Assembly (NCBI GenBank): GCA_035514295.1
Contig: DATKBB010000116.1
Coordinates: 8,496-72,495 of the forward strand
Origin: Candidatus Limnocylindria bacterium
Lineage (GTDB): Bacteria > Chloroflexota > Limnocylindria > Limnocylindrales > CSP1-4
DNA length: 64,000 nt
Direction of reading: 5' to 3'
The translations under genes and the position numbers were made by a program. Numbering within the stretch: the first letter of the stretch is position 1; each line of letters opens with the position of its first letter. The notes under the pieces are model-generated. The model saw only the letters and a list, made by a program, of their open reading frames with translations. It was not told the DNA's origin and made no database searches. Below are positions 37,756-64,000 of the stretch, in pieces.

Positions 37756-37759
37756 CCCG

Positions 37760-40274: not shown

Positions 40275-40301
40275 GCTGAGCTCCTTACTGTCCGAATCGG
40301 G

Positions 40302-40886: not shown

Positions 40887-40901
40887 GTTCGCTGAGCGAA
40901 C
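40887..40901. promoter_or_regulatory. perfect palindrome GTTCGCT-g-AGCGAAC in the divergent spacer between the dioxygenase operon and the IclR gene; candidate operator
   Basis: Read directly. A second palindrome, CACTC-agcgc-GAGTG, lies at 40866-40880. Confidence 0.35.
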
Positions 40902-40945
40902 GGGTGTACGCTGGGCGCACACAGTATCGGGCCGGAGATCAACGC

Positions 40946-48503: not shown

Positions 48504-49448
48504 TCAGAAGTCTACCGCGACACCCGTGGCGGCCCACGTCGACCGGCCGACCTGCTGGTGCCCGACCATCTTCGCCACCGGGGGCTGGCGGTTAGAGGCT
48601 GAGCTCAATGAGTCCTCGCTCGATGCGCAGGCGCTGTTCCTCGTCAAAGAGCCGGTGGTACTTCTCCAGACCGTAGAAGAAGACTTCTTGCGTCGCCTCC
48701 GACTCCACGTCTCGTGAGGCAGCACGAATTCGACGCTGCCGTTGACCTGCGCCTTGCCGTCGGGACCGTAGGGAACGCCGATCTCCCGGCAGAGCCCGGC
48801 AACCACCACCGCCGGTTGATCGGCCAGCTCCTCGTAGCGAACCAGGTGGTGGTTGGGCGAAGCGAGCCAGCGGCGCGCCCCGCCCACCGCCGCGTTCCAC
48901 CGTTCCAGGCAGTAGTCGATGGAGCGGAAGCGTCGCCAGTACCGTTCGGGCCGGCTCAGGGACAGCTCGTACAGTGAGGCGATCGTCGCCCCACCATCAC
49001 GGACCACGTGCACGAACTGGGCCTCGGGAGTGCTTTGCTGTATCTCGTGGATGTAGAAGAGATGCTCCGGCGTCTTCTCGACCCAGCCTCGGTTGCCCTC
49101 CCGGCGCGCCAGGCTGTCCAGCGTCTCCACGAACGCGCCGACGTTGGCGGCACTCGTCAGGCGCCAGCTCGGGCCGGGGACCGGAACACGACAACGTTCC
49201 GCCAGCCGACGCAGCGCGCGCCTGCCCTGGACCACTTCTTTCAGCCGGCCCCGCTTGCGGAAGTCGACAACGAAGAAGCGGGTTTCGGGCACCGTCGTAA
49301 GCGGCGCATGACGCTTCAGCAGGGACTGGAGCAGCGTAGTCCCGCTGCGGGGGCAACCGACGATGAAGGCGCGGACCAGACGCGAGTCATCCTTGGCCTG
49401 GCCGCCGGCGCTGGGCACCCGACGTGATCGCTCTGTCGCGGCCGTCAT
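48504..49448 (-). CDS. sulfotransferase (group B); the 3' end appears frameshifted, with the likely true stop at 48592
   Basis: 5'-PSB-like motif FIVGCPRSGTTLL. After ...VEFVLPHETW the high-GC3 coding signal moves to the frame of ORF 48592..48900 (ATQEVFFYGLEKYHRLFDEEQRLRIERG). Confidence 0.65.
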   Translation of the reverse strand: MTAATERSRRVPSAGGQAKDDSRLVRAFIVGCPRSGTTLLQSLLKRHAPLTTVPETRFFVVDFRKRGRLKEVVQGRRALRRLAERCRVPVPGPSWRLTSAANVGAFVETLDSLARREGNRGWVEKTPEHLFYIHEIQQSTPEAQFVHVVRDGGATIASLYELSLSRPERYWRRFRSIDYCLERWNAAVGGARRWLASPNHHLVRYEELADQPAVVVAGLCREIGVPYGPDGKAQVNGSVEFVLPHETWSRRRRKKSSSTVWRSTTGSLTRNSACASSEDSLSSASNRQPPVAKMVGHQQVGRSTWAATGVAVDF

Positions 49449-50260
49449 CGACCCGCGCGCTGCGCCGGCGGATCGTCCGTCCGGCGCGCGTCAACGGGCT
49501 TGCGCCTGCGGGCAAAGCGCGAGCGCACCATCCACCAGAAGAAGGGCGGGTCGTCGACAAAGACGCGGCGCCCGATACGCCGCGGGTCCTTGAGCAGGCG
49601 GAACGACCACTCCAGGCCTACGCTGGTCATCCACGCCGGCGCAGCCGGTACAAGTCCACCCAGGACATCGATCGCGTAGCCGACGCCGACCATGACCGTT
49701 TTCGGCAACTCCGCCTGGTGGCGTTCCATCCACTGTTCCTGCTTGGGCGAGCCCAGGCCCACGTAGAGGATGCGCGGTTCCGCCCGGCGCAATTGCTCGA
49801 CGGTTTCAGCATCCTCCGGGCCGCCGATGCGGAAACCCATCGGAGGGCCGATTGAGGCGATGACTTGAGCGCCAGCTGCATCCAGCACGCGTGCCGCCGT
49901 GGCCGGTGCGTCATCGCGCCCGCCCAGCAGAGCGGTCGGGAGCGGGTCGTCGGCGCTCGCCCGGGCCACCGCCTCGGGCAGCAGGCGGCCCGTAACCGGG
50001 CCGAGCAGCGGTGTGCCGGCGAGCCGCGAACCGTAGATGATTCCCATGCCGTCGGGCACACGGAGGCGCGCGCCGAGCGCCAACGCGCGGAATTCTTCGT
50101 GGCGACGGGCGCGGACAACATGGTCGACGTTCGGCGTGTTGATGTAGCCGCCCGAGCCGGCGCGCGCCCACTCGATGATCAAGGCCACCGCCTCATCGAA
50201 AGCGATGTTGTCGATCGGGAGGGTGTCGATCTGCACGACGCGCGGCGGCCGCTTGCTCAC
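49445..50260 (-). CDS. WecG/TagA/CpsF-family (GT26) glycosyltransferase
   Basis: 271 aa. GGYINTPNVDHVV...VPDGMGIIYGSRL...LYVGLGSPKQEQWM. Confidence 0.8.
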   Translation of the reverse strand: MSKRPPRVVQIDTLPIDNIAFDEAVALIIEWARAGSGGYINTPNVDHVVRARRHEEFRALALGARLRVPDGMGIIYGSRLAGTPLLGPVTGRLLPEAVARASADDPLPTALLGGRDDAPATAARVLDAAGAQVIASIGPPMGFRIGGPEDAETVEQLRRAEPRILYVGLGSPKQEQWMERHQAELPKTVMVGVGYAIDVLGGLVPAAPAWMTSVGLEWSFRLLKDPRRIGRRVFVDDPPFFWWMVRSRFARRRKPVDARRTDDPPAQRAGR

Positions 50261-51153
50261 GGGCGGCTCCAGGCCGTCAGATCGCGGCCGATCAGTCGCC
50301 CGAGTTCGGCGACCTCGGGGGCGAGCTCCGCCGTCAGCCGGCGGCGGAGGTCCGGATCAAGTGGAGCACGTGCCGCGCGGCGGCTGTTGAGCGCGACGAG
50401 CCGGTCGCGCACGCTGTGAGCGAGGGCAGACCGGCGCAGCCGCCCGTAGCAATTCCGGAGCGGTCCCGGGGGCGCAAATACGAGCCGCTGCAGCAAGCGT
50501 GAACGGGGCTGCTGGCTGGGGTTGTGTACCACGAAGTCGAGCTCGACGAGGGCGTCGACGTTCATGAACTCGAGCACTTGCCGATAGGCGCTACTCGGGT
50601 CCAGTGCGAAGTCGTCGAAGACGATGAAATGAACGCGCTCCCGTCCGAAAACGCCGAGGTAGCGCGCAACCTGCTCGGCGAAACGGACTGAGTGGCGGTA
50701 GTACAAAGCCTCGGGCCGGATCGCGTCCGGCGAGATCTGCTCTCCGCGCCGGCGCGCCGGCTCAGCTGCGAGGGCGTCGGCGAAGTCGGTGATGTCCTCA
50801 CGCCGGTTGAAGACCAGTTGGCCGTGCTGGGCATGCATGACATCTACCGGATTGCGCAGCATGACGATGATCTGTGCTTCCGGCGAAAAGTCCCTGATCT
50901 CCCGCGCGGCAGTGAGCGAGTACAGGTACCACGGCGATGCTTCGCCGGCGCGCTGGTCCGGGCGCGCGCCTGCAAATAGGGCGAGGTACTCGTCCTCGGT
51001 CATGCGCCGGTAGCGTGGCGTGAGGTCCTGGCCGAAGTACATCGGCTCCTTGGGCACCGACATGAACACCTGCGGGTGGGCGCGCAGGTACTCGTAGAGA
51101 GCCGTGGTGCCCGACTTGAAGGCCCCTACCACGAACAGGTCGGGTCGCTTCAC
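50257..51153 (-). CDS. sulfotransferase (group A paralog 1)
   Basis: 5'-PSB FVVGAFKSGTTAL and 3'-PB MLRNPVDVMHAQH. 4-nt overlaps on both sides. Confidence 0.8.
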   Translation of the reverse strand: MKRPDLFVVGAFKSGTTALYEYLRAHPQVFMSVPKEPMYFGQDLTPRYRRMTEDEYLALFAGARPDQRAGEASPWYLYSLTAAREIRDFSPEAQIIVMLRNPVDVMHAQHGQLVFNRREDITDFADALAAEPARRRGEQISPDAIRPEALYYRHSVRFAEQVARYLGVFGRERVHFIVFDDFALDPSSAYRQVLEFMNVDALVELDFVVHNPSQQPRSRLLQRLVFAPPGPLRNCYGRLRRSALAHSVRDRLVALNSRRAARAPLDPDLRRRLTAELAPEVAELGRLIGRDLTAWSRP

Positions 51154-52082
51154 GCACCGCTCCCGGCGGTCTCCAGTGGGGCGCGCTGCCGGGTCTCCAG
51201 CCAGCCCGACAGGTCACGCTCGATCAGCCGTCCGAGTCGCTCGATTTCTGGGGCCATCTCGTCGGTCAGGCGGCCGCGCAGCACCGGATCCATCGCCCGG
51301 CGTTGTCGGATCTCGCTGTTGAGCTCGAGCAGCCGCGTACGAACTGCCCGCACGAAAGGGAAGCGGCGCAGCAATGGGGCGAGCGGCAGCAGCAGCTTGG
51401 GCGCGAAAATCAGCCGCTGGATGAGCGGCGAGCGGACGCGGCGGTTCTCGTTCGCCTTGGGCGGCGCGGCGGCGAGGGACGGATCTACGCCCAGGAACTC
51501 GAGACAGCGCTGTACGACGGCAGCGCCGTCGCGCAGCAGGTCGTCGTGCAGCATCACGTGGACCCGCTCGCGGCCGAAGACCTCGAAGTAGCGTTCGAGC
51601 TGCTCGGCGAAGCGGACGCTGTGGCGGTAAAAGAGGTTCTCGATGTTGATCGGGCCGGCCGGCAGGCGCCGGCCTGCGCGGCGCTCGGGCTCGGCTGCCA
51701 GCGCCTCCTCGAAGTCGGGGATGTCCTCGATCACATTGAAGATCAGCTGGTTGTGCTGGGCGTACATGACGTCGACCGGGTGACGGAGCACGACGAGGAT
51801 CTGGGCGTCGGGCGAGAACGCCTTGATCTCGCGCGCGGCTGACGTCGAGTAGAGGTACCAGGTGGAGGCCTCGCCCACCCGCTGGCCCGGCCGGGCGTCC
51901 CTGAAGAGGCGCCGGTAGTCGGCTTCACTCATGCGCCCGTAGCGGCGGGTCAGGTCATCGCCGAAGTAGAGCGGCTCCTTGTGGAAGGGCATGAAGATCT
52001 GTGGGTGCCGGCGGAGGCCCTCGTAGAGGGCGGTGCTGCCGCTCTTGAAGGCACCGACGAGGAAGAAGTCAGGTCGGGCCAT
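51150..52082 (-). CDS. sulfotransferase (group A paralog 2)
   Basis: ATG at 52082. FLVGAFKSGSTAL and VLRHPVDVMYAQH. Collinear similarity to 50257..51153. Confidence 0.8.
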   Translation of the reverse strand: MARPDFFLVGAFKSGSTALYEGLRRHPQIFMPFHKEPLYFGDDLTRRYGRMSEADYRRLFRDARPGQRVGEASTWYLYSTSAAREIKAFSPDAQILVVLRHPVDVMYAQHNQLIFNVIEDIPDFEEALAAEPERRAGRRLPAGPINIENLFYRHSVRFAEQLERYFEVFGRERVHVMLHDDLLRDGAAVVQRCLEFLGVDPSLAAAPPKANENRRVRSPLIQRLIFAPKLLLPLAPLLRRFPFVRAVRTRLLELNSEIRQRRAMDPVLRGRLTDEMAPEIERLGRLIERDLSGWLETRQRAPLETAGSGA

Positions 52083-52243
52083 GCACGGGGAGGATAGCGG
52101 AGGCCCGACGTCGGCGGCTATCGGTCGCCGCACGCCGCACGCCATGTCGCTCCGTCCGTGTGGCCTTGTCGCGATGACCGCACAGACGTGCCGGCGGGGC
52201 ATATTGCGATCAAGCTTCCTCCAGTCCCCCCGGACCGGCTGCG

Positions 52244-53071
52244 CTAGGCCAGTCGTCCAGCAGGTAAAGCGACATCGTTCGAACCCGCCAGCTTGAGCTC
52301 GATGACACGAGCGATTTCCTGAACCTGGTCCGGCGTGAGCTCTTCACGCCATCTGCCGAGCGAACGGCGGTTGACCGTCGGTTCGGGAATCGGTGTCTGG
52401 AGTTCCAAGATCTCTTCAACGGCCCTCAACGACTCGGCTGGTGCGCGGTGCAGCTCCTCGTATGAAATCTCCACCAGCCGCGAACCGAGCAATGGCCGCA
52501 GCTCGGCGAACCTCTGCTCATGGGCGACCCACCGCAGGGCGCCCCTGCCCGCAAGGCTGAGCGACTCGTACCAGTCCGTGTCGGCAGCGCCAATTCCTAG
52601 GAAACGGTTGGGCAGCGGGTACTGCCGCCACTCTTCGAGCCAACGGCGTACCCCCTGATGCTTGAGCATGCTTGCAACGGTGCCGTAAACGCTCCGCCGG
52701 ACGCCAACGAAGAGGGCGTCGGGAAACTCCTCCGCCAGCAGCTCTGCGAACCAGATGTTGGGGTGGCTCTTGTCGGCAAAGTGACGTGGGGCGACACGTG
52801 CTGCCTCGTAGCGGTAAAGGCGCACGAGCCGTTTGAACAGCCGTTCGCGGGAGCGTGGATCGACGGCCATCGCTACCGAAAGCCTGAAGAAACGAGGCCG
52901 TTCGATTGACGCGCCTATCTCGGGGTGGGCGCCCAACACATTGCCGACCCAGTTCGTACCGGAGCGGCCCGTACCAATGACGAAGATCGGACTCGCCGAG
53001 AGCGGCCTGCGCAGTCGATAGGCGACATAGCCGGCGGCCAGCTCGAGCAGGTCGGAGCTATGGCGGCGCAT
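52244..53071 (-). CDS. sulfotransferase (group B)
   Basis: ATG at 53071 within ORF 52244..53227. FVIGTGRSGTNWV is the 5'-PSB-like motif and VGVRRSVYGTVAS the 3'-PB-like motif. Confidence 0.7.
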   Translation of the reverse strand: MRRHSSDLLELAAGYVAYRLRRPLSASPIFVIGTGRSGTNWVGNVLGAHPEIGASIERPRFFRLSVAMAVDPRSRERLFKRLVRLYRYEAARVAPRHFADKSHPNIWFAELLAEEFPDALFVGVRRSVYGTVASMLKHQGVRRWLEEWRQYPLPNRFLGIGAADTDWYESLSLAGRGALRWVAHEQRFAELRPLLGSRLVEISYEELHRAPAESLRAVEEILELQTPIPEPTVNRRSLGRWREELTPDQVQEIARVIELKLAGSNDVALPAGRLA

Positions 53072-53238
53072 GCCGGCTACTATACGGGCCTGAAGTCCTG
53101 TGACAGATGAGAGGCGCAGGTCGTCGCCGAAGATTACAATTCGCGCGCCAGAATGGGCCGGCCCTCCACCAGCCTGTCGGGCAGCGGCATGTCGGATCGC
53201 CCGCGTCCGTGTGTGGCGCGCCAGCACCTCAGTTTTGG

Positions 53239-54144
53239 GTGACCGAGATTGGTTCCTTGACGGACTCAGGCGCGCGCCCGGCCAGCAACTCAGCGCAGGT
53301 TCTGGACGTCACCGTAGTCGTGCCGGTCCACAACAGCGCAGGCACGCTCGGCCGGGCACTAGCGTCGATTCGTGCGCAAACACGCCAGCCGGCGGCGGTC
53401 ATCGTCGTGGACGATGCGTCCAGCGACAACTCGGCGGAGCTCGCACGGGACCTCGGACTGGCCAACCTGCGAGTGATCCGACACGCGGTCAACCGCGGAC
53501 CGGGTGCGGCACGCAACACCGGCACGACCGAAGCAACGACCGAGTGGGTGGCCTTCCTTGACAGCGATGACGAGTGGGAGCCGACGTTCTTGGAGGAGGT
53601 CTCGGATGTGCTCGAGAGCACCTGCACTGACTTTGCCGCCAGTGGCGGGGTTCGACACTTCGCCGGCGGGCGCAGTGAGCGTCTGATCGGCGACGAGCCG
53701 GCTCTGGGCAGTGACCGGACCGATGAGCTCTGGAGACTATGGTTGCGCTTCAATCGCTCACCGATCAACTCATCATCTGCCATTCTTCGACGTTCGCTCT
53801 TGCAGCGCGTAGGTGGCTATCCCGAAGACCTTCGCCGCGGCGAGGACCTCGTAACGTACGCGCGACTGTGGCTGGAGGGGCGCTTCGCCTTCCTCAACCG
53901 ACCCCTGTGGCACGTCCATCAAACTCAAGGCAGCCTGACCACCCTTGGGCCGTCGTTCTACGAGGCGCGCCAGCAGCTCGCCCGCCTCGGGAGATCCCTT
54001 TTGACTGCTGCCATACGGCGACGACCGGGAGCCACGTCATTCCTGCTCGTCTACCTCCAGCTCGTCGCCCGCAGGCTTGTGTGGGTGCCCGGCTGGATTC
54101 GCTCGCGTGGCGAGCCCGTTGGCCGGCGGCGCGTCCGCGGCTAA
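53239..54144 (+). CDS. family-2 glycosyltransferase (GT2)
   Basis: VVVPVHNSAGTL...VVDDASSDNS...NRGPGAARNTG...FLDSDDEW. Start uncertain: GTG at 53239, while the ORF opens at 53107. Confidence 0.8.
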   Translation: MTEIGSLTDSGARPASNSAQVLDVTVVVPVHNSAGTLGRALASIRAQTRQPAAVIVVDDASSDNSAELARDLGLANLRVIRHAVNRGPGAARNTGTTEATTEWVAFLDSDDEWEPTFLEEVSDVLESTCTDFAASGGVRHFAGGRSERLIGDEPALGSDRTDELWRLWLRFNRSPINSSSAILRRSLLQRVGGYPEDLRRGEDLVTYARLWLEGRFAFLNRPLWHVHQTQGSLTTLGPSFYEARQQLARLGRSLLTAAIRRRPGATSFLLVYLQLVARRLVWVPGWIRSRGEPVGRRRVRG

Positions 54145-54155
54145 CATCCGGCTCG

Positions 54156-54983
54156 ATGTCGCATCTCCTGCCCGCGAGCCGTGACGATTACAGGCCGGTT
54201 CTTAGCCCGTCACGCATATTCTGGTTCCGGCACCGTTCCAATTTCGGGGACCGCATGGCCGTACCGCTGGTGCGGCACTTCGCCGGCCTTGATGCGCGCT
54301 GGGCGCCGCCGGAGAAGTCGGATGCGGCGATCATCGGCTCGATCGCCGGCCAGCTGCCCCGCGGCTATGGTGGCGTCATCGTGGGTATCGGCAAGATCCG
54401 GCCGGACGTCGACATCGACCTCTCCGCGGCGACCGTGCTTGGCCTGCGCGGCGAGCTGACGCTGCGCGGTGCTGGCGTGCGGGGCGACATCGCGCTTGGC
54501 GACACTGGGCTGCTGGCCATCGACCTGTTGGGAGAACGGCCGGCAGTGGCGCACGCGCTCGGTGTGGTGCCTCACTACCTGGATCAGAGCCTTGCCGGTC
54601 GTTATCCCAGCGCGTTTCGCATCGACGTCGGTGGAGACCCGCTCGTGGTCATTCGCCAGATCGCCTCATGTCAGCGGATCGTCTCGAGCTCGCTGCACGG
54701 TCTCGTCACCGCTGACTCACTCGGCATCGCTCGGATGTGGGAGCCCTACGCCGAGCTGAAGGGCGGACGCTTCAAGTTCGACGACTATGCGAGCGCGCTC
54801 GGCATCAAGTTGGAGCCGGGCGGCTGGGATACGGCCCCCCAATCGGCCGTCGCCAGAGCTCGCTCAGCGCTGCGTGACGCGATGAAGGAGCTGTCTGCTG
54901 CCCTGTCGGCTCCCCCCAAGCCGGCCGGCCGCGGCCGCATCTCGCACTTGCTGCGTCGTCGGCCGCGGGCAGGAGCGCGATAG
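54156..54983 (+). CDS. polysaccharide pyruvyl transferase family protein
   Basis: ATG at 54156 within ORF 53739..54983. FRHRSNFGDRMAVPLV and RIVSSSLHGLVTADSLGI resemble PS_pyruv_trans motifs. Confidence 0.7.
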   Translation: MSHLLPASRDDYRPVLSPSRIFWFRHRSNFGDRMAVPLVRHFAGLDARWAPPEKSDAAIIGSIAGQLPRGYGGVIVGIGKIRPDVDIDLSAATVLGLRGELTLRGAGVRGDIALGDTGLLAIDLLGERPAVAHALGVVPHYLDQSLAGRYPSAFRIDVGGDPLVVIRQIASCQRIVSSSLHGLVTADSLGIARMWEPYAELKGGRFKFDDYASALGIKLEPGGWDTAPQSAVARARSALRDAMKELSAALSAPPKPAGRGRISHLLRRRPRAGAR

Positions 54984-55041
54984 TCGGCTGTCAGTGGGCC
55001 GCTCGTCGCTTCAGAAGTCCGAGGACGCCATCGGGGTAGCC

Positions 55042-56634
55042 CTACAGCCCGATGGGATCGTCGCGCTCCTCCGCCGTAAGTGTTGCCTCTACCGATCGTC
55101 GCCCCCGGCGCGCAGCCACCTGCTCGAACCGTTGTTGTGCGCGCTCGCCGCCCGGCAGCGCCTGGGTCACGAACTCGATCAACTGATGCAACAGCGCGCG
55201 GTCGAGCACATACAACGCTCCAACGTACGCCGCGGCGCCCACCCCGAATTCCACCAAGAGCAGGACGACGTTGTCGACGCGTGGATGCATCAGCCACTTG
55301 GCGGCTAGGACGGCGCCCGCCATCAGCACCGTGGCCGCGACGGTGCCCCGAAGGCGGGAGAGGTAGGCGCGGGTGGGGATACCAGCGTAGCGGCGCTGGA
55401 AGAACAGCTGGAGAGGCACCATCAGGTAACCGCGAACGACGAAGGCGGCGGCGACGGCAACGATGCCGAACGAGACTGCGAGTGCGAAGCCGGTCACCGC
55501 CGTGATGGTGTTGACGAGGCGCAACCGAAGGGCTATGTCGGGCCTCCCCACCACCGACAACAACGTGACGCCGAATCCCTGAACCGCGAGCGCCGGACCG
55601 ACCAGGAAGAGCACCGCCGCCACCGGAACGGCCTCGTCCCATTTGCCGCCGAAGACAGCCCGGATCAGCTCCGGTGCGACGAGCGCCATGCCGACGTAGG
55701 CGGGCAGCACCACCCCTGCCGTGACGCGGGTGATCCGAAAGTAGGCTGCCTGCAGCCGTGTCGGTTCGTGCTGTAGGCGCGAGAGTGCTGGAAAGGCGAC
55801 CTTACGCGCGATGCCGTGAAGCAGGTGGTTGCCGGCATCCAGGATGCGGTAGGCGATCGCGTAGTGGCCGAGAGCGGGCGTGCCCAGCACCGCACCGATG
55901 AGCAAATTGTCTGAGTACCGTGTGAAGTATCCAAGAAGGTCGCCGCCCACGATGTTCGCGCCGTAGCCGAACAGGTCGCGGAAGTGGCGCCTGCTGAAGT
56001 TCGGCCGTGGCCGCCACGGACTGGCGACCATGAGTGCCACCGCCGACAAGACGGCAGTGAGCAGCTGCTGCACGACCAACGCCCACACGCCGTACCCCGC
56101 CAGTGCCAGGAAGACACCGGCTGCTCCGCCGCCGACGATTGAGAACATCGTGCGCAGGGCGAGGCTGCGGAAGCGCATCTCGCGCCGCAGAATGCCCATT
56201 GGCACCGCGGACACGGCGGTCAGGAGGAACGCGAGCGAGAGCGCCTGCAGGACGGGCTGCAGACGAGGCTCGCCCAGCAGCGTGGCGATCGGTATCGCAA
56301 GAACAACGCCGCCGGCGGTCAGGACGGCGCCCATCGACAGCGCTGCCCAGAAGGCGCTGTCCAGGTGTTCCCGCTCCAGCACGCGGCGCTGGATGATGGC
56401 GTCGCCCATGCCCTGGTCGACGAACAGCGAGGCGAGCATGACGAAGACCATCGCCAGGGCCACCAGGCCGAAGTCCTGCGGCGGGAGGAGGCGGGCGAGG
56501 ATAACGAAGACGAGCAACTGAAGCAGCTGCCGGCCCCAGTTGTCGATCAACGCCCAGCGTGTGGCGCGTGCCGTGCGGCGCCGGAGGTTGGCGCTATCCG
56601 AGCCGTGGTCGGCAGGCTCCCATGGTTTGCTCAT
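55042..56634 (-). CDS. MOP-superfamily polysaccharide flippase (Wzx-like)
   Basis: ATG at 56634. About 14 hydrophobic helices. The N-terminus RATRWALIDNWGRQLLQLLVFVILARLLPPQDFGLVA is typical of Polysacc_synt proteins. Confidence 0.8.
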   Translation of the reverse strand: MSKPWEPADHGSDSANLRRRTARATRWALIDNWGRQLLQLLVFVILARLLPPQDFGLVALAMVFVMLASLFVDQGMGDAIIQRRVLEREHLDSAFWAALSMGAVLTAGGVVLAIPIATLLGEPRLQPVLQALSLAFLLTAVSAVPMGILRREMRFRSLALRTMFSIVGGGAAGVFLALAGYGVWALVVQQLLTAVLSAVALMVASPWRPRPNFSRRHFRDLFGYGANIVGGDLLGYFTRYSDNLLIGAVLGTPALGHYAIAYRILDAGNHLLHGIARKVAFPALSRLQHEPTRLQAAYFRITRVTAGVVLPAYVGMALVAPELIRAVFGGKWDEAVPVAAVLFLVGPALAVQGFGVTLLSVVGRPDIALRLRLVNTITAVTGFALAVSFGIVAVAAAFVVRGYLMVPLQLFFQRRYAGIPTRAYLSRLRGTVAATVLMAGAVLAAKWLMHPRVDNVVLLLVEFGVGAAAYVGALYVLDRALLHQLIEFVTQALPGGERAQQRFEQVAARRGRRSVEATLTAEERDDPIGL

Positions 56635-56732
56635 CGGGATCGCTTCGCATTGACCACGCGAGGAAAGTGTACCGGCGCACGCTCGATCGCTGAGTTCGAC
56701 CGCGCGCGGTCGAACCACTTAACATCGGCGTA

Positions 56733-58031
56733 GTGTCACCCTCTCGGCGTCCTGCGACCTTGCCTCGAAAGGGGGTCCGCGTACTCATTGTCGCGCCAGC
56801 GCCGCTGGGGGATGCGCGCATTGGAGGCATCGTGAACTTCATTCGCGGCTTTGTCCGCTACATGCCTTCTGACTTCGAGGCGGAGATCGTGGGCATCGCA
56901 GTTGGCGAAGACCATTCGGGCAGCGGCTGGCGGGAGATCACTCTCGCGGGCCGGGGCGTCCGATTCCTTCCAGTTGCCCGCATGCCGCAGGCACGCCGAT
57001 CCGGCCGACTCCCGACCAAGGCACGTATCGTCGCCGGGATGTTGCGCCACCGCGCGCGGATTGCGACTGCTGGCCGCGTCGCTCAGATCCACGCGCCCGC
57101 GATGGACCTGAGCCTGCTCGGGCGCCAGGTGCCGACGGTACGGGTAGTCCACAACGCGCCAAGGGACCTGGCGACGAATCGCGGCGAAAGCGCCTGGCGC
57201 CGGTTCGCCGTAGGGCTCTACCTCGCCGAACGGCTCACGTTCCGCCGCTCGAGCCTCGTCTACTTCGTGAACCAGAAAACGTACGACGAGTATGCAGAAG
57301 CGATGACGGCCAGTGCCAGCTCGATGCGGTACCTGCCCAATTTCGTAGACACGTCTAGCTTCCTGCCACGCTTTGGCGAAGAGCGAAGTGCGCTGCGGAA
57401 GGAGCTGGGCAACGTTGTCGGCGTTGACCCAGGCGCACCCTGGCTCCTCTTTGCCGGCCGGCTCGATCCGCAGAAGGACCCGCTGCTCGCCTTACGGTCG
57501 TTCGTCGCGGCTATCCAATCGGATCCGACTTCCCAAGCTCGACTGCTGATCGCCGGCGACGGCACTCTCCGCGTAGTTTCCGAGCGAGCTGTGACCGAGG
57601 CGGGGATCGTCGATCGCGTCGCCTTCACGGGCACCTTGCCGCAGGAGACGCTGGCGAAGCTGATGAGTGTTGCAGACGCGTTCCTGCTGACGTCGTCGTT
57701 TGAGGCTGGACCGACCGTCGCGTACGAAGCGCTGGCATCGGGCTTGCCCGTCGTTTCCACGGCCGTAGGCGAAGTGCCTCGACTGGTCCGCCACGGCGAG
57801 ACCGGGTGGCTGGTTGGGAGCGCCGATCCGGCCCAGCTGGGAGCCGGCATCCTATGGGCTCTCAGCAGGGACCGCGCGGTGGCGGCCGAGGCGTGCGCGC
57901 GATCGATGGCGCCGTACCACCTCGAGACGGTGCTGAAGGCTTTCTACGACGAGCATCGCCGGCTCGCCCTCGGTGAGCTGGAGGCCATGTATGATGGCGA
58001 CCGCCCTGACCGCTCCACGGAGTCGCCGTGA
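56733..58031 (+). CDS. family-4 (GT-B, group 1) glycosyltransferase
   Basis: LLFAGRLDPQKDPL and the E-x7-E motif SSFEAGPTVAYEALASGLPVV. Confidence 0.8.
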   Translation: MSPSRRPATLPRKGVRVLIVAPAPLGDARIGGIVNFIRGFVRYMPSDFEAEIVGIAVGEDHSGSGWREITLAGRGVRFLPVARMPQARRSGRLPTKARIVAGMLRHRARIATAGRVAQIHAPAMDLSLLGRQVPTVRVVHNAPRDLATNRGESAWRRFAVGLYLAERLTFRRSSLVYFVNQKTYDEYAEAMTASASSMRYLPNFVDTSSFLPRFGEERSALRKELGNVVGVDPGAPWLLFAGRLDPQKDPLLALRSFVAAIQSDPTSQARLLIAGDGTLRVVSERAVTEAGIVDRVAFTGTLPQETLAKLMSVADAFLLTSSFEAGPTVAYEALASGLPVVSTAVGEVPRLVRHGETGWLVGSADPAQLGAGILWALSRDRAVAAEACARSMAPYHLETVLKAFYDEHRRLALGELEAMYDGDRPDRSTESP

Positions 58032-58975
58032 CACGCCGTCCCAACCTGTTCATCGTTGGCGCGCCCAAGAGCGGCACGACCTCGCTCTACGACTACCTGC
58101 ACGGCCACTCCGACGTCTTCATGTCGCCGATCAAGGAGCCGATTTACTTCGCGCCCGACATGCAGGCTGGCTTCAAGCACCGCTTCCGCCACGGCGAAGA
58201 CGAGAAGGAGTACTTGGCGCTGTTCGATGGCGCGCACGACGAGCGCTACGTGGGCGAGGCTTCGACGCGCTACCTAGCTTCCCCGATGGCGCCGGCACTG
58301 ATCCGCGAGTTCGCGCCCGACGCGCGGATCGTGGCGATGCTGCGCAATCCGGTCGACATGGTCTACGCGCTGCACAACGAGCGCGTCTCGCAGCAGGCAG
58401 AGGATGTGACCGACTTCGAGGCAGCGATTGCCCTCGACCATGAACGACGCGAGGGCCGCCGGCTGCCCCGCGGCTCCAATGCGCTGGGAGCCGTGTATCG
58501 TGACAACGCGATGTTTGGCGCGCAGCTGATGCGCTGGCTGGATACCCTCGGCCGAGATCACGTATACGTCATCATCTTCGACGACTTCGCGCGCGACACC
58601 GCCGCCGAGTTCCGTCGGCTGCTCGACTACCTGGGCATCGATCCTTCGTACCGCCCGCCCCAGTTCGCAGTCGTAAACAAGAGTCACCGCAGCCGCGGCG
58701 GGCTGGCGCGAGCGCTGTTCGCCAGCCCCGTCGCACATGTCGTCCGCCACAGCGTCATGCCGGCCGTCATCGGAGAAGACAACGCCGCCCGCGCGGCGCG
58801 ACGCCTGCGCCACAGCCGGATCAACCGTCGGGCCAACCCGCGACCGCCGCTAGATCGCGAGTTCCGGCGCCGGCTGGAGCGCGAGTTCGAGGCCGATGTC
58901 GCCGTCCTGAGCCGGCTGGTCGACCGCGACCTCAGCAGCGAGTGGCTGGGCAAGCCAGTCGCGGCGCCCGCCTAG
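58028..58975 (+). CDS. sulfotransferase (group A paralog 3)
   Basis: FIVGAPKSGTTSL and MLRNPVDMVYALH. 4-nt overlap with the GT4 gene. Confidence 0.8.
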   Translation: MTRRPNLFIVGAPKSGTTSLYDYLHGHSDVFMSPIKEPIYFAPDMQAGFKHRFRHGEDEKEYLALFDGAHDERYVGEASTRYLASPMAPALIREFAPDARIVAMLRNPVDMVYALHNERVSQQAEDVTDFEAAIALDHERREGRRLPRGSNALGAVYRDNAMFGAQLMRWLDTLGRDHVYVIIFDDFARDTAAEFRRLLDYLGIDPSYRPPQFAVVNKSHRSRGGLARALFASPVAHVVRHSVMPAVIGEDNAARAARRLRHSRINRRANPRPPLDREFRRRLEREFEADVAVLSRLVDRDLSSEWLGKPVAAPA

Positions 58976-58979
58976 CGGT

Positions 58980-60014
58980 GTGACTGCTGGACCGCTCGGC
59001 GGCAGCCGCACGGCTCGCTCATCTGCAGCAAATCGGCCCGTGACCCAGACCGCACCTGAGTCCGACGGGCCCACCGCCAGCCACGCGCAGCCCGCGCCCG
59101 CCGAGCCCGAGGCGATCTTCGTCGTGGGTGTCCACCGTAGCGGGACGACGTTGATGCGCGACATCCTCGAGCGTTCCGAGCACGTCGCCATCGCGCGTGA
59201 GAACCACTTCCTCGGCCACCTGCGCGAGAAGGAGGGGGCGCGCTACTACTTCCGACAGGCGGGCGACCTGGCCGATGACGCCACCATCCGGCGCATCGCC
59301 GACATGATCTACGGCGGCGAGTTCCGGCGTCGCTCACGCTGGCGGGACGTGAGCACCTTCTGGCGCTGGCTGGTCGAGAACGTCCCCCAGGACGAGATAG
59401 TCCACCGGTTGGTGGTCGAGGAGAGATCGGAGCGCGGGCTGATGCGCGGCTTCATGCGCGCCTACGCCGATGCGCGCGGCCGGCCGGTGATGGGCGAGAA
59501 GACGCCCGCCCACCTGGCTTACGTGGATACCCTGCTCGAGTGGTTTCCCAACGCCAGGGTGATCCACATGCTCCGCGACCCGCGCGCCGTCTACGTTTCC
59601 GATTTGCGCCGGCGAAGCACGCGCCCGCCGCACCGTACGTCGTGGCTGCTCAAGATCCCGCGGCCTCTCCTGCCGCCGATCATCCTCGTCCAGACGGTTT
59701 TGCTCTGGCGGGCGGCCGTCCGCCGCCACGCCGCCTACGCGGCGCGCTACCCGGACCGGTACCGCCTGGTCCGCTTCGAGGACGTCGTCCGCCGGCCGGA
59801 CGAAACGCTGGGCGCGCTGTTTGACTTCCTTCGCGTGCCGATGCCGGTCGACCCTACGGAAGTCAAGGTCGTCTCGCGTGGCTTCCGCCTGGGCGAGCAG
59901 GGCCTGGATGCGGCGGCGGCCGATCGCTGGCGTGAGCACATTGGCCCGCTCGCGAGGCGGTTTCTCGGGCTCACCCTGCGCGGCCCGATGCGCCGCCACG
60001 GGTACAACGACTAA
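58980..60014 (+). CDS. sulfotransferase (group B)
   Basis: FVVGVHRSGTTLM and MLRDPRAVYVSDL. The first ~45 aa are low complexity, so the true start may lie further in. Confidence 0.7.
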   Translation: MTAGPLGGSRTARSSAANRPVTQTAPESDGPTASHAQPAPAEPEAIFVVGVHRSGTTLMRDILERSEHVAIARENHFLGHLREKEGARYYFRQAGDLADDATIRRIADMIYGGEFRRRSRWRDVSTFWRWLVENVPQDEIVHRLVVEERSERGLMRGFMRAYADARGRPVMGEKTPAHLAYVDTLLEWFPNARVIHMLRDPRAVYVSDLRRRSTRPPHRTSWLLKIPRPLLPPIILVQTVLLWRAAVRRHAAYAARYPDRYRLVRFEDVVRRPDETLGALFDFLRVPMPVDPTEVKVVSRGFRLGEQGLDAAAADRWREHIGPLARRFLGLTLRGPMRRHGYND

Positions 60015-60090: not shown

Positions 60091-60432
60091 TCAGCTGGCC
60101 TGCACCTCGCGGAAGCAGTCGGAGCAGTAGACCGGCCGGTCCATGCGCGGCTTGAAGGGCACCTGTGCGGCGTTGCCGCACTTGGAACATATGACTGCGA
60201 AGTACTCGCGTTGCGGGCGGTACTCGCCGCGCTCATAGCCGCGCGGACCACCGATCTCACGCACGTCGTAGTCGCTCGACTCGCGCATCGTGCGTCGCGC
60301 GGCGCGGCAGCCCGGGCAGCGCTTGGGATCCGATGCGAACCCCTTCTGAGCGTAGAACTCCTGGTCCGCCGCTGAGTGGACGAACTCCACGCCGCAGTCG
60401 GCGCAGGTCAGCGTTCGATCTGTGTAGGACAC
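60091..60432 (-). CDS. small protein with two CxxC...CxxC zinc-ribbon modules
   Basis: GTG at 60432 with GGAGGAGG upstream. CADCG...CPGC and CSKCG...CSDC. The rest of ORF 60091..61038 is not coding. Confidence 0.65.
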   Translation of the reverse strand: MSYTDRTLTCADCGVEFVHSAADQEFYAQKGFASDPKRCPGCRAARRTMRESSDYDVREIGGPRGYERGEYRPQREYFAVICSKCGNAAQVPFKPRMDRPVYCSDCFREVQAS

Positions 60433-60772
60433 CGACGTCGGACCTCCTCCCCATGGAACCGGTTTCAGCCTGTGCAACTGGCCCGGCCCGCTGGGACGTA
60501 GGCAACTAGGCCGTGGCGACTGTATCGAGCCGGGCGCCGCGCTACCCAGGTGTCTGCCGAGGTCCCTGACTGGGGCGCACCGGTTACGAGCGAAGGTTAC
60601 CACGGACCGACCGCCGAACTGCCTCCGCAGCGTCGAGGGCACGGCCTCAAGTAGTCCATCCTTCCCATTTCGCGGTGCTCGCGGGATGTCAGAATGGTTG
60701 CCAGCCGTCAACACCCGAGCGCCGAGACCGGCGCCGCCAGAGGCAATTCCTGCGGAGGGGCCGATCGCCGAC

Positions 60773-61939
60773 ATGCTCCGTCTCATGCACATGGCCGACG
60801 TGCACCTGGGTGCCCGCCACCACGACCTGGGAGCGGCCGCCGCCGCCCAGCGCGAGCGCCAGTTCGCCGCGTTCCGGCGCGCCGTCGAGCTGGCCATCGC
60901 CGAGAAGGTGCAGCTGGTGCTCATCTGCGGCGACCTGTTCGACTCCAACAACCAGCCGCGCCGGTCGGTCGAGCGGGCGGCGGCCGAGCTGGCCCGCCTG
61001 GCCGAGCGCGGCATTCCGGTGGTGATCATCCCGGGCACGCACGACGTCTACGACTCGAGCTCCATCTACCGCGCCTTCGACCTGGCTGCGCTGGCCGGGC
61101 TGCCAGCGGACGGCGACCAGTTGGTGGTGCTGACCGACACGCGCAGCGAGGTGCGCTTCGCCGACCTGGGCCTGACCGTCCACGGACGTGTCTCGCGTGT
61201 CAAGCGCGCCGCGGCCAGCCCGCTGGCCGGCTTCCATGCGCCCGCCGACGACGGCTGGCAGATCGGCATGATCCACGGCTCGCTGGCCGTGCCGGGCAAG
61301 GTGGAACAGGACGACGTGCTGTTCAGCGAGGCGGAAGTCGAGGGCAGCGGCCTGGACTACCTGGCCCTTGGCCATTGGCACTCTCGTTTGGACGGTCGAG
61401 CAGGCGGCACCACCTGGGCCTACTCCGGCGCGCTGGAGCCGCTGGCCCTCGACCAGGACGGCGCCGGCCAGGTGCTGCTGGTCACTCTCAGCCAGAAGGG
61501 CGGGCAGCGCGAGGTGCGCCTGGAGGCCCGGCCGGTGGGTCAGAGCAAGGTGCGCCGCATCGAGCTCGATGCGGGCGACTTCGCCTCCCAGCCCGCGCTG
61601 GCCGCCAGCCTCACCCAACTGGCCGATGCGGACCTGGTGGCCGACGTGCGGCTGGTTGGCCTGCGCCGGCCGGAGCTGGACCTGCACCTCGACGAGCTCG
61701 AGCAACAACTGGCGCCCTCCTTCCTGCGGCTGCGCCTGCGCGACGATTCGCTGGCGCCGCTGCCCGAAGGGCCGCTGCCGCCGGCCGACACGATCATGGG
61801 CGCCTTCGTGCGTGACCTGACGGCCCGCATCGAGGAGGGCGAACGGGAGGCTGACGAGGCGCGCGTGAGCGAGCTGCGCGAGGCGCTGCACATCGGCCGG
61901 CTGCTGCTCGACGACCCCGAGCGGGTGGGGCTCGCCTGA
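60773..61939 (+). CDS. Mre11/SbcD-type metallophosphoesterase (YhaO/SbcF-like DNA repair exonuclease)
   Basis: ATG at 60773. Phosphoesterase motifs HMADVHLG, CGDLFD and IIPGTHD, then GHWH. Confidence 0.8.
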   Translation: MLRLMHMADVHLGARHHDLGAAAAAQRERQFAAFRRAVELAIAEKVQLVLICGDLFDSNNQPRRSVERAAAELARLAERGIPVVIIPGTHDVYDSSSIYRAFDLAALAGLPADGDQLVVLTDTRSEVRFADLGLTVHGRVSRVKRAAASPLAGFHAPADDGWQIGMIHGSLAVPGKVEQDDVLFSEAEVEGSGLDYLALGHWHSRLDGRAGGTTWAYSGALEPLALDQDGAGQVLLVTLSQKGGQREVRLEARPVGQSKVRRIELDAGDFASQPALAASLTQLADADLVADVRLVGLRRPELDLHLDELEQQLAPSFLRLRLRDDSLAPLPEGPLPPADTIMGAFVRDLTARIEEGEREADEARVSELREALHIGRLLLDDPERVGLA

Positions 61940-61941
61940 CG

Positions 61942-64000
61942 ATGCGCATCAGCCGCCTGCGCCTGCACAACGTCAAACGCCACGCCGATCTCACGCTGGA
62001 GTTCGCGCCGGGCCTGACCGTCGTGCGCGGCCCCAACGAAGCGGGCAAGAGCACGCTCCAGCGAGCGATCGAGATCTGCCTCTTCCGCAAGCCCACCTCG
62101 ACCGCGCAGGAGCTCGATGGCGTGCGCCGCTGGGGAGCAGCTAGCGATCCGCGTATCGAGCTGGACTTCGAGGAGGAGGGTGCCGAGGGCGAGCTGGTGA
62201 AGGTCTTCGCGGGCGCTCGAGGCACCGTCGAGCTGCGCTACGAGGACGCCGTGCTGACCGACCCGGGCGCCGTCGAGGAGGTCATCACGCGCCTGACCGG
62301 CCTGCCCTCTGAGCGCTTCTACCGTGCCACGGCGAGCATCCACCACCATGAGCTGGCCGGCCTGGACCACGACGAGCAGACCCTGCGCGACCGGCTCCAG
62401 CAATCGATGAGCGGCGCCGACCGGGGCACGCGCGCGGCGCGGCGCAAGCTCGAGGACGCCGCCAGGCGTTACCGCAGCGAGGGCCATAAGAACCCCGGCT
62501 ACCTGAAGGTCGCCCGCGCCGAGGTGGAGCGGCTGACGCAGGCTGTCGCCGAGGGCGACGCCGCGCTGGCCCAGCTCGAGCGCGACCGCCAGGCGCTGGC
62601 CGACGCGCGCGACAAGCGCGCCCTGGCCGAGGACCAGCTGGCCCAGTACCGCCAGGCCCTCGAGGCCAGCGAGCGGGCACTCAAGCTGGCTCGCCGGGCA
62701 GAAGAGGCCGCCCAGCGTTACGAGATCTACAAGCGGGCCGAGGAACTGCGCACGGAGGTGGTCGCCCTCGACGCTGCCCACCCGTCGGCCATGCCCCTGC
62801 CCGAGCTCAAGGCGGCAGTCGAGCGCATCCGCAACCAGGAGTACCGCCTGTCCGAGATTCGCGCGGAGCTAGCCGCCGAACCTGACCCCTCGACCTGGGA
62901 GGCAAGCCACGCGCAACCTCGCTGGCGGCTGGCGCTGGCCGCCGCCGGCATGCTGGCCGTGCTGTCCGTCGTCGGCTTGCTGGGCGGCGTGCTGGCCGGC
63001 GAGGCGTTGATCGGTGGCGTGCTGGCGGCCGTGCTTGCCGCCGGTGCGTTGGTGGCCGGGCTGGTCGCCCGCCGCATGCGCCGGGGGAACGCCACGACCA
63101 CACAGCAGCAGGAGCTGCGCGACATCGACATCGCCCGCCGGTTGCGCGGGCGCTCGGATCTCTTCGAGCAGGTGCGCGAGGTGGAGCGCGCCCGAGACGA
63201 GGCCGTGGCGGCGCTGGGCCTGCCCGACTTGGCCGCAGCCGAGGCACTGCTCGAAAAGGAGAGCGAACACGTCGCGCGCATCGACAACCTGCGTGCCGAG
63301 ATGCGCGGACTGCTGGGCGAGGAGCCCTCGGCCGATTCGTACGCGGAGTTCCGCGACGCGGCCGCCAACGAGGTCGACGAGTGCCGCCACGCGCTGGGCG
63401 GCATGGGCAAGATCGGCAGCGAGCCGGAGAAGAGCAACCAGGCCCTCAAGGGCGCCGTCGAGCGCGCCGGCCGAGAGCGCGAGGACGCCTTCAACGCCGA
63501 GGCCCAGGCGGATGCGCGGCTGGCCGCCAACGGCATCGACGCGGAGGAGGTGGCCGCCCTCGCCGAATCACTGAGCGCTCAGGAGGAGCGCCTGGCCGGC
63601 CTGGAGCGCCGGCTGCGCATCTACGAAACCATCCTGGCGGCGCTCGACGAGGCTGAGCGCTCGACGATGAAGAAGGCCGCCCGTTTCCTCGAGCAGCGCA
63701 TGGCGACCGACGTCGAGCGCATCACGGACGGCCGTTACCGGCGCCTGCGTGTGGACGAAGCCAAGCTGGCCTTCAGCGTGTACTCGGCCGAATCGGGCGA
63801 TTGGGTGGACGCCCTCGCTCTCTCGCGCGGCACCATCGACCAGCTCTACCTGTGTGCCAGGCTGGGCATCGTGCGCCAGGTAACGCAGCCGGCCAGCCCG
63901 CCCCTGGTCCTGGACGATCCGTTCGTGACCTTCGACGACGATCGCGCCCGGCGTGCGGTCGAGCTGCTGCGCTCGGCGGCCGGCGAGTACCAGATCATCC
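61942..64000 (+). CDS. Rad50/SbcC-like AAA ATPase of the YhaN type (partial, runs off the window end) with a central transmembrane hairpin
   Basis: Not in the ORF track because there is no stop in the window. My translation from the ATG at 61942 reads MRISRLRLHNVKRHADLTLEFAPGLTVVRGPNEAGKST, long coiled-coil regions, a hydrophobic hairpin at about 62920-63085, then LSRGTIDQLYL and PLVLDDPF (signature and Walker B). Confidence 0.8.
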   Translation, partial: MRISRLRLHNVKRHADLTLEFAPGLTVVRGPNEAGKSTLQRAIEICLFRKPTSTAQELDGVRRWGAASDPRIELDFEEEGAEGELVKVFAGARGTVELRYEDAVLTDPGAVEEVITRLTGLPSERFYRATASIHHHELAGLDHDEQTLRDRLQQSMSGADRGTRAARRKLEDAARRYRSEGHKNPGYLKVARAEVERLTQAVAEGDAALAQLERDRQALADARDKRALAEDQLAQYRQALEASERALKLARRAEEAAQRYEIYKRAEELRTEVVALDAAHPSAMPLPELKAAVERIRNQEYRLSEIRAELAAEPDPSTWEASHAQPRWRLALAAAGMLAVLSVVGLLGGVLAGEALIGGVLAAVLAAGALVAGLVARRMRRGNATTTQQQELRDIDIARRLRGRSDLFEQVREVERARDEAVAALGLPDLAAAEALLEKESEHVARIDNLRAEMRGLLGEEPSADSYAEFRDAAANEVDECRHALGGMGKIGSEPEKSNQALKGAVERAGREREDAFNAEAQADARLAANGIDAEEVAALAESLSAQEERLAGLERRLRIYETILAALDEAERSTMKKAARFLEQRMATDVERITDGRYRRLRVDEAKLAFSVYSAESGDWVDALALSRGTIDQLYLCARLGIVRQVTQPASPPLVLDDPFVTFDDDRARRAVELLRSAAGEYQII

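Follow-up and report, generated by a model that had tools for sequence, protein, structure and literature searches.

Multiple sulfotransferase genes in a Candidatus Limnocylindria glycan cluster and the sulfated surface polymer that they probably make

Overview of the cluster

The subject of this report is an 11.5-kb cluster of eleven back-to-back genes at 48.5-60.0 kb of a 64-kb stretch of Candidatus Limnocylindria DNA (contig DATKBB010000116.1), the whole of which is referred to below as the window. Limnocylindria is a class of uncultured Chloroflexota that is abundant in soil and freshwater. Six genes of the cluster belong to sulfotransferase families (ST1 to ST6), and they are interleaved with genes for three glycosyltransferases (GT26, GT2 and GT4), a putative polysaccharide pyruvyl transferase (Pyr) and a Wzx-type flippase. 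Judged from these families and from the company that they keep in related genomes, the cluster very probably makes a surface glycan that is sulfated with 3'-phosphoadenosine 5'-phosphosulfate (PAPS) as donor. An exported, sulfated glycan is well supported because clusters in relatives contain an adenosine 5'-phosphosulfate (APS) kinase gene and a secreted sulfatase gene, because the proteins are homologous to those of the synechan (xss) cluster of a cyanobacterium, and because catalytic residues of the sulfotransferases are conserved. The complete pathway, which includes multi-site sulfation, pyruvylation, Wzx-dependent export and anchoring in the cell wall, is slightly favoured by sequence and analogy. 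Wall anchoring taken by itself is tentative, and is put a little below an even call because neither the window nor its two closest relatives have a gene for a LytR-CpsA-Psr (LCP) ligase nearby.

Five of the genes form a run on the minus strand in the order ST4, ST3, ST2, GT26 and ST1. Of the six genes beyond ST4, only Wzx is on the minus strand; GT2 and Pyr before it and GT4, ST5 and ST6 after it are on the plus strand. G+C content lies at 64-72% over the whole window, and coding frames were chosen by G+C content at third codon positions (GC3). The interleaving and close packing noted in a preliminary description of this DNA were verified, with 4-nt start/stop overlaps at ST1/GT26, GT26/ST2, ST2/ST3 and GT4/ST5, and with ST6 following ST5 on the same strand after a gap of 4 nt. 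An exact-sequence look-up with ST5 returned a single match, the independent Logan assembly contig SRR8556377_72547 (7.5 kb), which carries an identical ST5 gene and is 100% identical to positions 51966-59506, a span that stops short of ST1.

Two classes of sulfotransferase

All six open reading frames (ORFs) match both PF13469 (Sulfotransfer_3; E-values of 4.9e-30 to 2.9e-12, 47.8-105.9 bits) and PF00685 (Sulfotransfer_1; 34-37 bits), for which the curated Pfam cut-offs are 27 and 22 bits, respectively. The P-loops of the 5'-phosphosulfate-binding (5'-PSB) site and the downstream 3'-phosphate-binding (3'-PB)-like motifs on which the preliminary description had relied were all found in the translations. 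The P-loop reads GCPRSGTT in ST1, GAFKSGTT in ST2, GAFKSGST in ST3, GTGRSGTN in ST4, GAPKSGTT in ST5 and GVHRSGTT in ST6. The 3'-PB-like motif is RNPVD in ST2 and ST5, RHPVD in ST3 and RDPRA in ST6, and the corresponding region is VRDGGATIAS in ST1 and VRRSVYGTVAS in ST4, so that each of the six combines a 5'-PSB loop of the G-x-x-K/R-S/C-G-T-T kind with a 3'-PB arginine. None of the six received a name from the NCBIfam equivalog models. They fall into two classes, type A (ST2, ST3 and ST5) and type B (ST1, ST4 and ST6).

The type-A enzymes ST2 (50257..51153, minus strand), ST3 (51150..52082, minus strand) and ST5 (58028..58975, plus strand; Pfam 4.1e-17) are 39-57% identical to one another. 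Their profile, compared with the PDB, matches best the uncharacterised bacterial structure 3RNL (4e-66), followed by the heparan-sulfate 3-O-sulfotransferases (3-OST) 3A1, 1 and 5 and the N-sulfotransferase domain of the N-deacetylase/N-sulfotransferase (NDST) NDST1, at 5e-13 to 1e-6 (5e-13 for 3-OST-3A1 and ~1e-7 for NDST1). Over 173 relatives the class conserves G11, K14, G16, T17 and T18 of the 5'-PSB site and R106 and P108 of the 3'-PB site, and a K36-E37 pair aligns with the catalytic glutamate of 3-OST ('EPHFF'), E37 being retained in 168 of the 173. The family is split at the 3'-PB serine, which is Ser in 89 members and Ala in 84, the latter including all three window enzymes. By relationship and by the catalytic glutamate, ST2, ST3 and ST5 are predicted carbohydrate sulfotransferases akin to the heparan-sulfate 3-OST and N-sulfotransferase enzymes.

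The type-A family is large, with 7,145 representatives at the 50% identity level (E <= 1e-30). Type-A sulfotransferases, often as tandem pairs, were also seen in anammox and Nitrospirota genomes, at L040, L049 (Candidatus Brocadia), L047, L048, L061 and L074 (Nitrospirota). Sulfated glycosaminoglycan-like exopolysaccharides (EPS) have been reported from anammox granules.

Type B is represented by ST1 (48592..49448, minus strand; PF13469 4.9e-30), ST4 (52244..53071, minus strand; Pfam 9.8e-20) and ST6 (58980..60014, plus strand, with an alternative start at 59040; Pfam 2.8e-28). The class has weak matches to CurM, tyrosylprotein sulfotransferases and a mycobacterial Stf enzyme (E-values of 3e-6 to 6e-3), ST4 showing weak similarity to tyrosylprotein sulfotransferases and XssE. 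Among the loci examined, ST4 is unique to the source organism, since its sole match was L001, which has the same sequence. The remaining enzymes are widely shared. Orthologues in relatives are 65-79% identical for ST2, 41-66% for ST5 and 54-64% for ST6, and for ST3, the best conserved gene of the cluster, the best 120 homologue clusters listed (at the 90% level) are all 75-89% identical. ST2, ST3, ST5 and ST6 appear to be distinct, anciently diverged orthogroups, which argues for different regiospecificities. Neither transmembrane segments nor signal peptides were found in any sulfotransferase, in GT2, in GT4 or in Pyr, and such soluble enzymes would fit action on a lipid-linked intermediate in the cytoplasm, where PAPS is available.

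A frameshift in ST1

ST1 differs from the other five genes in that, as sequenced, it contains a 1-nt deletion at ~48704, just past a TGG codon. The uncorrected ORF runs on to 48504, and its last 66 codons are out of frame and rich in serine and arginine; the last ~37 true residues of ST1 are thereby replaced by out-of-frame sequence. An alternative frame with strong codon bias encodes the real C-terminus, ...SEATQEVFFYGLEKYHRLFDEEQRLRIERGLIELSL*, and the corrected C-terminus (…HETWKSEATQEVFFYGLEKYHRLFDEEQRLRIERGLIELSL; site 48592-48710) agrees with homologues. These homologues are 275-300 aa long and cover just the first 64-75% of the uncorrected ORF. When one A is inserted past the TGG, the full length of ST1 can be aligned with P0064 and further homologues (HETWK...), with a TAA stop at 48594-48592, and R150 and S158 are invariant in the family. 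Programmed frameshifting was considered and rejected, as there is no slippery run and the sole change is the missing A after TGG. The deletion may be a sequencing or assembly error, or ST1 may be a real pseudogene.

The homologues of ST1 are mostly cyanobacterial, the best being 47% identical. In the two syntenic relatives described below (L039 and L078) the gene is missing, and in the window it constitutes a 1-kb insertion between GT26 and an aldehyde dehydrogenase gene. Its distribution, its absence from these relatives and the deletion suggest that ST1 was acquired horizontally and is possibly decaying.

Genes for chain assembly and export

The family assignments previously made for GT26, GT2, GT4 and Wzx agree with Pfam profile searches. 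GT26 (49445..50260, minus strand), of the WecG/TagA/CpsF family, matches PF03808 at 1.5e-40 (139 bits, cut-off 27.4) and TIGR00696 at 111 bits (cut-off 69), and its orthologues in relatives are 60-71% identical. Scores on the equivalog models TarA, WecG and EpsA fall short of the cut-offs, which leaves the donor sugar undefined. By family analogy, GT26 would catalyse the second step on N-acetylglucosamine (GlcNAc)-diphosphate-undecaprenol. GT2 (53107..54144, plus strand) matches PF00535 at 2.3e-32; its start is uncertain, the catalytic domain beginning at ~53311, and the gene call is the same on the Logan contig. GT4 (56760..58031, plus strand; longest ORF from 56733) matches PF00534 at 1.2e-28, and its orthologues, 50-57% identical, likewise adjoin ST5 in relatives. 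Wzx (55042..56634, minus strand; longest ORF to 56718) is polytopic, with nine strongly hydrophobic segments, and matches PF13440 at 1.3e-88 as well as NCBIfam models for multidrug/oligosaccharidyl-lipid/polysaccharide (MOP) flippases and TuaB-like proteins.

Pyr (54156..54983, plus strand) is a short form of 275 aa. No PDB sequence match was obtained with it, either singly or as a 42-sequence profile. All 61 of its homologues, at 28-64% identity, carry PF04230, and its AlphaFold model has a pLDDT of 91.6. By way of its homologues and its predicted fold, Pyr is a probable member of the polysaccharide pyruvyl transferase family.

A conserved core and a variable cassette in relatives

A scan of the GTDB species representatives with the type-A alignment yielded 309 relatives. 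The best is just 66% identical, and the source species is thus not represented in the GTDB set. The top relatives are metagenome-assembled genomes (MAGs) of Chloroflexota from soil surveys, labelled Candidatus Limnocylindria, Limnocylindrales or generic 'Chloroflexia'. Counts of genes in the related loci given here rest on hidden Markov model matches on stop-to-stop ORFs, not on GC3 gene calls, and sulfotransferases are counted as totals with no split between classes, as the type-B model drifted into type A on iteration.

The synteny proposed in the preliminary description as a check was found, in that the core ST3-ST2-GT26 recurs in 28 of 76 related loci, all of them in Chloroflexota. The closest resemblance is to L039 (Candidatus Limnocylindrales) and the JGI contig L078, which have the flanking genes of the window at both ends (Metallophos and zf_Tbcl at one, Aldh and Aminotran_3 at the other) and whose proteins are 57-88% identical to those of the window. 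Their clusters are smaller. L039 has ST6, a sulfatase, ST3, ST2 and GT26, and L078 has ST6, a sulfatase, an extra sulfotransferase, ST3, ST2, GT26 and a polysaccharide deacetylase; the 7-kb block from ST4 to ST5 of the window stands where these two loci have the sulfatase. A third locus, L071, shares the order Wzx-GT4-ST5 and has a methyltransferase in place of ST4, GT2 and Pyr, so that the stretch between ST3 and Wzx is best read as a variable cassette of the kind found in serotype loci.

Several accessory genes bear on what the clusters make. LCP genes share the locus with GT26 in 15 of the 28 core loci and, where examined, directly adjoin GT26, often as a tandem pair. Of the 76 related loci, 28 have an APS kinase gene, as does each of the five loci L079-L083 (four independent contexts); its usual place is between ST5 and ST6 (L002:10950-11526, L081:8318-8848, L079:9334-9891). 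The window has no APS kinase at its ST5/ST6 junction (58975-59040), and ST6 has a 45-residue low-complexity N-terminal extension; by comparison with relatives, the kinase gene appears to have been lost from this site or never to have been there. The clusters of L039 (6681-8717, minus strand), L078 (6483-8516, minus strand) and L082 (1682-3610, minus strand) encode a secreted sulfatase that has a CCP[AG]R motif and may serve in extracellular remodelling or recycling of the sulfated polymer. Identification of these Sulfatase genes as LtaS/EptA-type phosphotransferases was rejected, as the proteins have a signal peptide, an SGSH_C domain and the formylglycine motif CCP[AG]R. Near the core in other relatives are genes for Wzy_C proteins, UDP-sugar dehydrogenases and epimerases, LicD, methyltransferases and a Sulfotransfer_2 enzyme, and L083 carries a priming enzyme of the Bac_transf family. 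In L078 a 492-aa polysaccharide deacetylase (PF01522; 12584-14062, plus strand) lies between GT26 and the aldehyde dehydrogenase gene. This gene and the NDST-like similarity of the sulfotransferases are a hint that N-deacetylation may precede N-sulfation in that strain, which makes N-sulfation a possibility for some relatives.

Proteins of ~800 aa with FG-GAP repeats are encoded repeatedly after the cluster (L071:11584-16433, L008:13534-16050, L083:2470-5031, and in L002 and L003), and may be surface proteins associated with the polymer.

The number of sulfotransferases had been singled out as exceptional. Per 12 kb, the 82 other loci have one (28 loci), two (17), three (17), four (15), five (4) or six (1, L035). 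The six of the window exceed the number in xss, as the preliminary description supposed, being three times as many, but they are matched in L035 and approached by the four or five of 19 of the 82 loci. The window therefore stands at the top of a lineage-wide range and is no singularity, the trait being one of the lineage and not of this genome alone.

A proposed pathway and its alternatives

The acceptor sugars, the chemistry and the destination of the glycan are what we infer from family membership, motifs, synteny and synechan homology. Synthesis would begin with a TagO/WecA-type enzyme encoded elsewhere, which makes GlcNAc-diphosphate-undecaprenol; an unlinked enzyme supplying this lipid to a TagA-family transferase would account for the lack of a priming enzyme in the window. 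The TagA-like GT26 would add the second sugar, GT4 and GT2 would lengthen the chain, and the pyruvyl transferase would attach a pyruvate ketal from phosphoenolpyruvate. Up to six soluble sulfotransferases, three of them 3-OST/XssA-like and three XssE-like, would each transfer a sulfate from PAPS to a different position. After assembly on the cytoplasmic face of the membrane, Wzx would flip the completed anionic unit outward, where, judging from genes that relatives have and the window does not, it would probably be ligated to peptidoglycan by an LCP enzyme, with or without a Wzy polymerase. The product would be a secondary cell-wall polymer charged by sulfate, a functional analogue of teichoic, teichuronic and pyruvylated wall polymers. 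The Wzx-dependent, multiply sulfated and pyruvylated anionic glycan put forward in the preliminary description thus gains support from xss homology and from the APS kinase and sulfatase of relatives, and the pairing of TagA with LCP in relatives, which parallels the tagO-tagA-csaB system of Paenibacillus alvei, suggests a wall-anchored version of it.

A number of observations weigh against this scheme. A scan of essentially all other credible ORFs of the 64-kb window against families found no priming transferase, Wzy, LCP ligase, APS kinase or ATP sulfurylase, and no chain-length regulator, and phmmer searches with the APS kinase, LCP and Bac_transf sequences of relatives found no match in the window, all in agreement with the absences listed earlier. 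The clusters of L039 and L078, the two closest syntenic relatives, have neither an LCP nor an APS kinase gene nearby. A UDP-GlcNAc 2-epimerase was not seen, and N-acetylmannosamine as the donor for GT26 is a matter of family analogy. As sequenced, ST1 is frameshifted, so that of the six sulfotransferase ORFs originally described, all of which exceed the Pfam cut-offs, five (ST2-ST6) are intact. The likeness of the type-B enzymes to XssE is weak, roughly on a par with their likeness to tyrosylprotein and polyketide sulfotransferases. The original call of a pyruvyl transferase is upheld by the homologues and the predicted fold of Pyr and not by its own score, which alone is 21.6 bits on PF04230, under the cut-off of 25.3; the best PDB fold match of the model, the yeast pyruvyltransferase Pvg1p (5AX7), has an E-value of 1.8e-4 and a probability of 1.00 with a low TM score of 0.41. 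Finally, the basis of the scheme is sequence inference for an uncultured organism.

How firmly the product is held by the cell is the point on which the principal alternative differs. The cluster might make a released or loosely bound EPS or capsule, similar to synechan and built with an unlinked Wzy and polysaccharide co-polymerase (PCP), without attachment to peptidoglycan. The homology of the parts list to the xss EPS cluster, the lack of a nearby LCP gene in the window, L039 and L078, and the wide occurrence of sulfated glycosaminoglycan-like EPS in environmental biofilms (PMC10483923, PMC7356697) all fit such a product. We nevertheless regard it as unlikely, though as the strongest competitor, given that more than half of the core loci contain LCP genes, which adjoin GT26 where examined, that GT26/TagA enzymes classically start wall-linkage units, and that no gene for PCP or outer-membrane polysaccharide export (OPX) was seen among the related loci annotated.

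Two further possibilities, both improbable, concern the acceptor. A sulfated oligosaccharide might be moved to protein, as an O-glycan of an S-layer or other surface protein, by a Wzy_C oligosaccharyltransferase, with neither polymerisation nor wall ligation. Proteins with a Wzy_C domain, a family that includes O-oligosaccharyltransferases, adjoin GT26 in 9 related loci, Wzx has a sub-threshold match to an O-glycosylation flippase model, the window lacks Wzy, and large FG-GAP surface proteins are encoded after the cluster in several relatives. However, the window lacks a Wzy_C gene as well, the LCP adjacency of relatives favours wall ligation, and the flippase match is non-discriminating, as TuaB and generic MOP models score alike. 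It is also conceivable that some sulfotransferases, especially the type-B enzymes ST1, ST4 and ST6, have a lipid, a small metabolite or a protein tyrosine as substrate and share no more than the locus with the glycan genes, consistent with the weak matches of type B to tyrosylprotein sulfotransferases, CurM and mycobacterial Stf, with the accessory nature of ST1 and ST4, and with the apparent horizontal acquisition of ST1. This possibility is countered by the interleaving of these genes with glycan genes, down to the ST1/GT26 overlap and the short same-strand gap between ST5 and ST6, by the membership of XssE from the synechan cluster in the same class, and by the ST6 orthologues, which hold their cluster position across relatives.

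The scheme of a sulfated, Wzx-exported glycan can also be extended to the lineage as a whole, in a form that is more speculative than wall anchoring in the window and that we consider possible rather than probable. Limnocylindria would then share a peptidoglycan-anchored 'sulfo-teichoic' polymer whose charge comes from sulfate esters and not from phosphate or uronate. A TagA-type linkage unit would be sulfated by the ancient tandem pair ST3 and ST2 while still lipid-linked, a dedicated in-cluster APS kinase would provide PAPS, and the secreted in-cluster sulfatase would remodel the polymer extracellularly. A hypervariable cassette (here ST4, GT2 and Pyr, with ST1 as a further extra) would diversify the polymer between strains.

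Other genes of the window

Outside the cluster, the window encodes catabolic and transport functions, among them aldehyde dehydrogenases, a hydroquinone-dioxygenase cluster, ABC transporters and Tad pilus genes. TadE-like and TadG-like genes for Flp-pilus assembly lie at 2057-4133. An aromatic-catabolism cluster, unrelated to the glycan cluster, occupies 35937-41737 and includes a gene for the N-terminal domain of a hydroquinone 1,2-dioxygenase large subunit (PnpCD type) with an adjoining 188-aa ORF without a family match, a gene of the Fe-alcohol-dehydrogenase family (maleylacetate-reductase-like), an aldehyde dehydrogenase, an ABC ATPase and a divergent IclR regulator. At the end of the window (60091-64000), the ORFs 60091-61038, 61540-62781 and 62727-63536, all on the minus strand, are probably partly spurious. 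At the equivalent position, relatives have genes for a 113-aa treble-clef zinc-finger protein, an SbcD-like Metallophos protein and a 735-aa SbcC-like AAA_23 protein; the last of these, if present in the window, would run past its end.

Significance

According to papers up to 2026, bacterial sulfated polysaccharides are essentially confined to cyanobacteria (PMC8205485, PMC13390465). Sulfated glycosaminoglycan-like polymers have been detected repeatedly in sludge and biofilm matrices (PMC7356697, PMC10483923); Pontiella has three putative glycosaminoglycan sulfotransferases genome-wide (PMC7356697), and a mat metagenome study found no sulfotransferase in two Chloroflexi MAGs (PMC9723792). A literature search returned no paper linking Limnocylindria or LCP ligases with sulfotransferases. 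The window and ~80 related loci indicate that clusters with three to six sulfotransferases are conserved in a major uncultured lineage of soil Chloroflexota, which makes Limnocylindria candidate producers of environmental sulfated glycans. They also lead to the hypothesis that sulfate can stand in for phosphate as the anionic charge of the wall in a monoderm, and they bring to notice a large, uncharacterised family of heparan-sulfate-like carbohydrate sulfotransferases of possible use in the enzymatic sulfation of glycans.

Comparison with known systems

The nearest precedent is synechan of Synechocystis sp. PCC 6803, whose xss cluster is the one bacterial sulfated-EPS locus with genetic validation and has two sulfotransferases and a product that bears two sulfates per eight-sugar repeat (PMC8205485). 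The xss proteins, encoded on plasmid pSYSM, were compared with those of the window by BLASTP. XssA is 23-30% identical to ST2, ST3 and ST5 (E-values of 1e-17 to 3e-23; 30% and 3e-23 for ST3), XssE is the counterpart of ST1, ST4 and ST6 (29% and 8e-10 for ST6), XssN is 33% identical to GT26 (3e-38), XssH is 26% identical to Wzx, and XssI and XssG match GT4. Both sulfotransferase classes, GT26, Wzx, and the GT4 and GT2 enzymes thus have counterparts in the window, and in both systems the repeat unit would be sulfated in the cytoplasm ahead of flipping by Wzx. The differences are equally clear. The xss cluster has two sulfotransferases to the window's six, it has no pyruvyl transferase, and it possesses its own Wzy, PCP and priming transferase, which, like the regulatory XssQ, XssR and XssS, are without counterpart in the window. 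It belongs to a diderm cyanobacterium and yields a released product, whereas relatives of the window combine the core with genes for LCP, APS kinase and a secreted sulfatase.

Pyruvylated wall polymers offer a second comparison. In P. alvei, tagO-tagA-csaB directs the cytoplasmic pyruvylation of a lipid-linked disaccharide, from which the only anionic polymer of the wall arises (PMC6801904). The TagO-TagA-CsaB system of P. alvei and Bacillus anthracis shares with the window a TagA-family GT26 and, on the proposed pathway, the cytoplasmic addition of an anionic group to a lipid-diphosphate precursor; the window also has a probable gene of the pyruvyl transferase family, and the likeness would extend to a polymer that serves as the fixed negative charge of the wall and to the LCP-type attachment suggested by relatives. 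In the window, by contrast, the charge would consist mainly of sulfate esters, the putative pyruvyl transferase is a short form, and there is no tagO, LCP or surface-layer-homology (SLH) protein gene.

Among sulfotransferases, ST2, ST3 and ST5 have the motifs that define the fold and align with animal heparan-sulfate 3-OST and NDST enzymes and with 3RNL over ~200 residues, including the PSB lysine, the position of the catalytic glutamate and the 3'-PB arginine, but identity to the animal enzymes is low and the 3'-PB serine is replaced by alanine. A predicted system in a monoderm, high-GC host, the wps-1 cluster of the actinomycete Actinoplanes missouriensis, is of the Wzx/Wzy type and has two sulfotransferases, with a sulfated polysaccharide predicted and unverified (PMC13390465), so that the earlier statement that no such polymer was described for high-GC Gram-positive or Chloroflexi-like lineages now holds for a demonstrated product and no longer for a predicted one. 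By its description, wps-1 resembles the window in its Wzx-type organisation and in one heparan-sulfate-type sulfotransferase, and differs in the number of sulfotransferases, in including Wzy and Wzz, and in having no reported link to GT26 or LCP. The rhizobial NodH and LpsS and the mycobacterial Stf enzymes likewise perform PAPS-dependent sulfation of bacterial glycoconjugates, and distant type-A homologues (30% identity) are encoded on the megaplasmids of Sinorhizobium meliloti; unlike the cluster described here, NodH, LpsS and Stf are single enzymes that act on lipo-oligosaccharide, lipopolysaccharide and trehalose glycolipids, and are not parts of multi-sulfotransferase polymer clusters. 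Set beside all of these systems, the components of the Limnocylindria cluster are of known kinds, and what is new is the lineage, the multiplicity of sulfotransferases, and their conserved association with genes for TagA, LCP, APS kinase and sulfatase.

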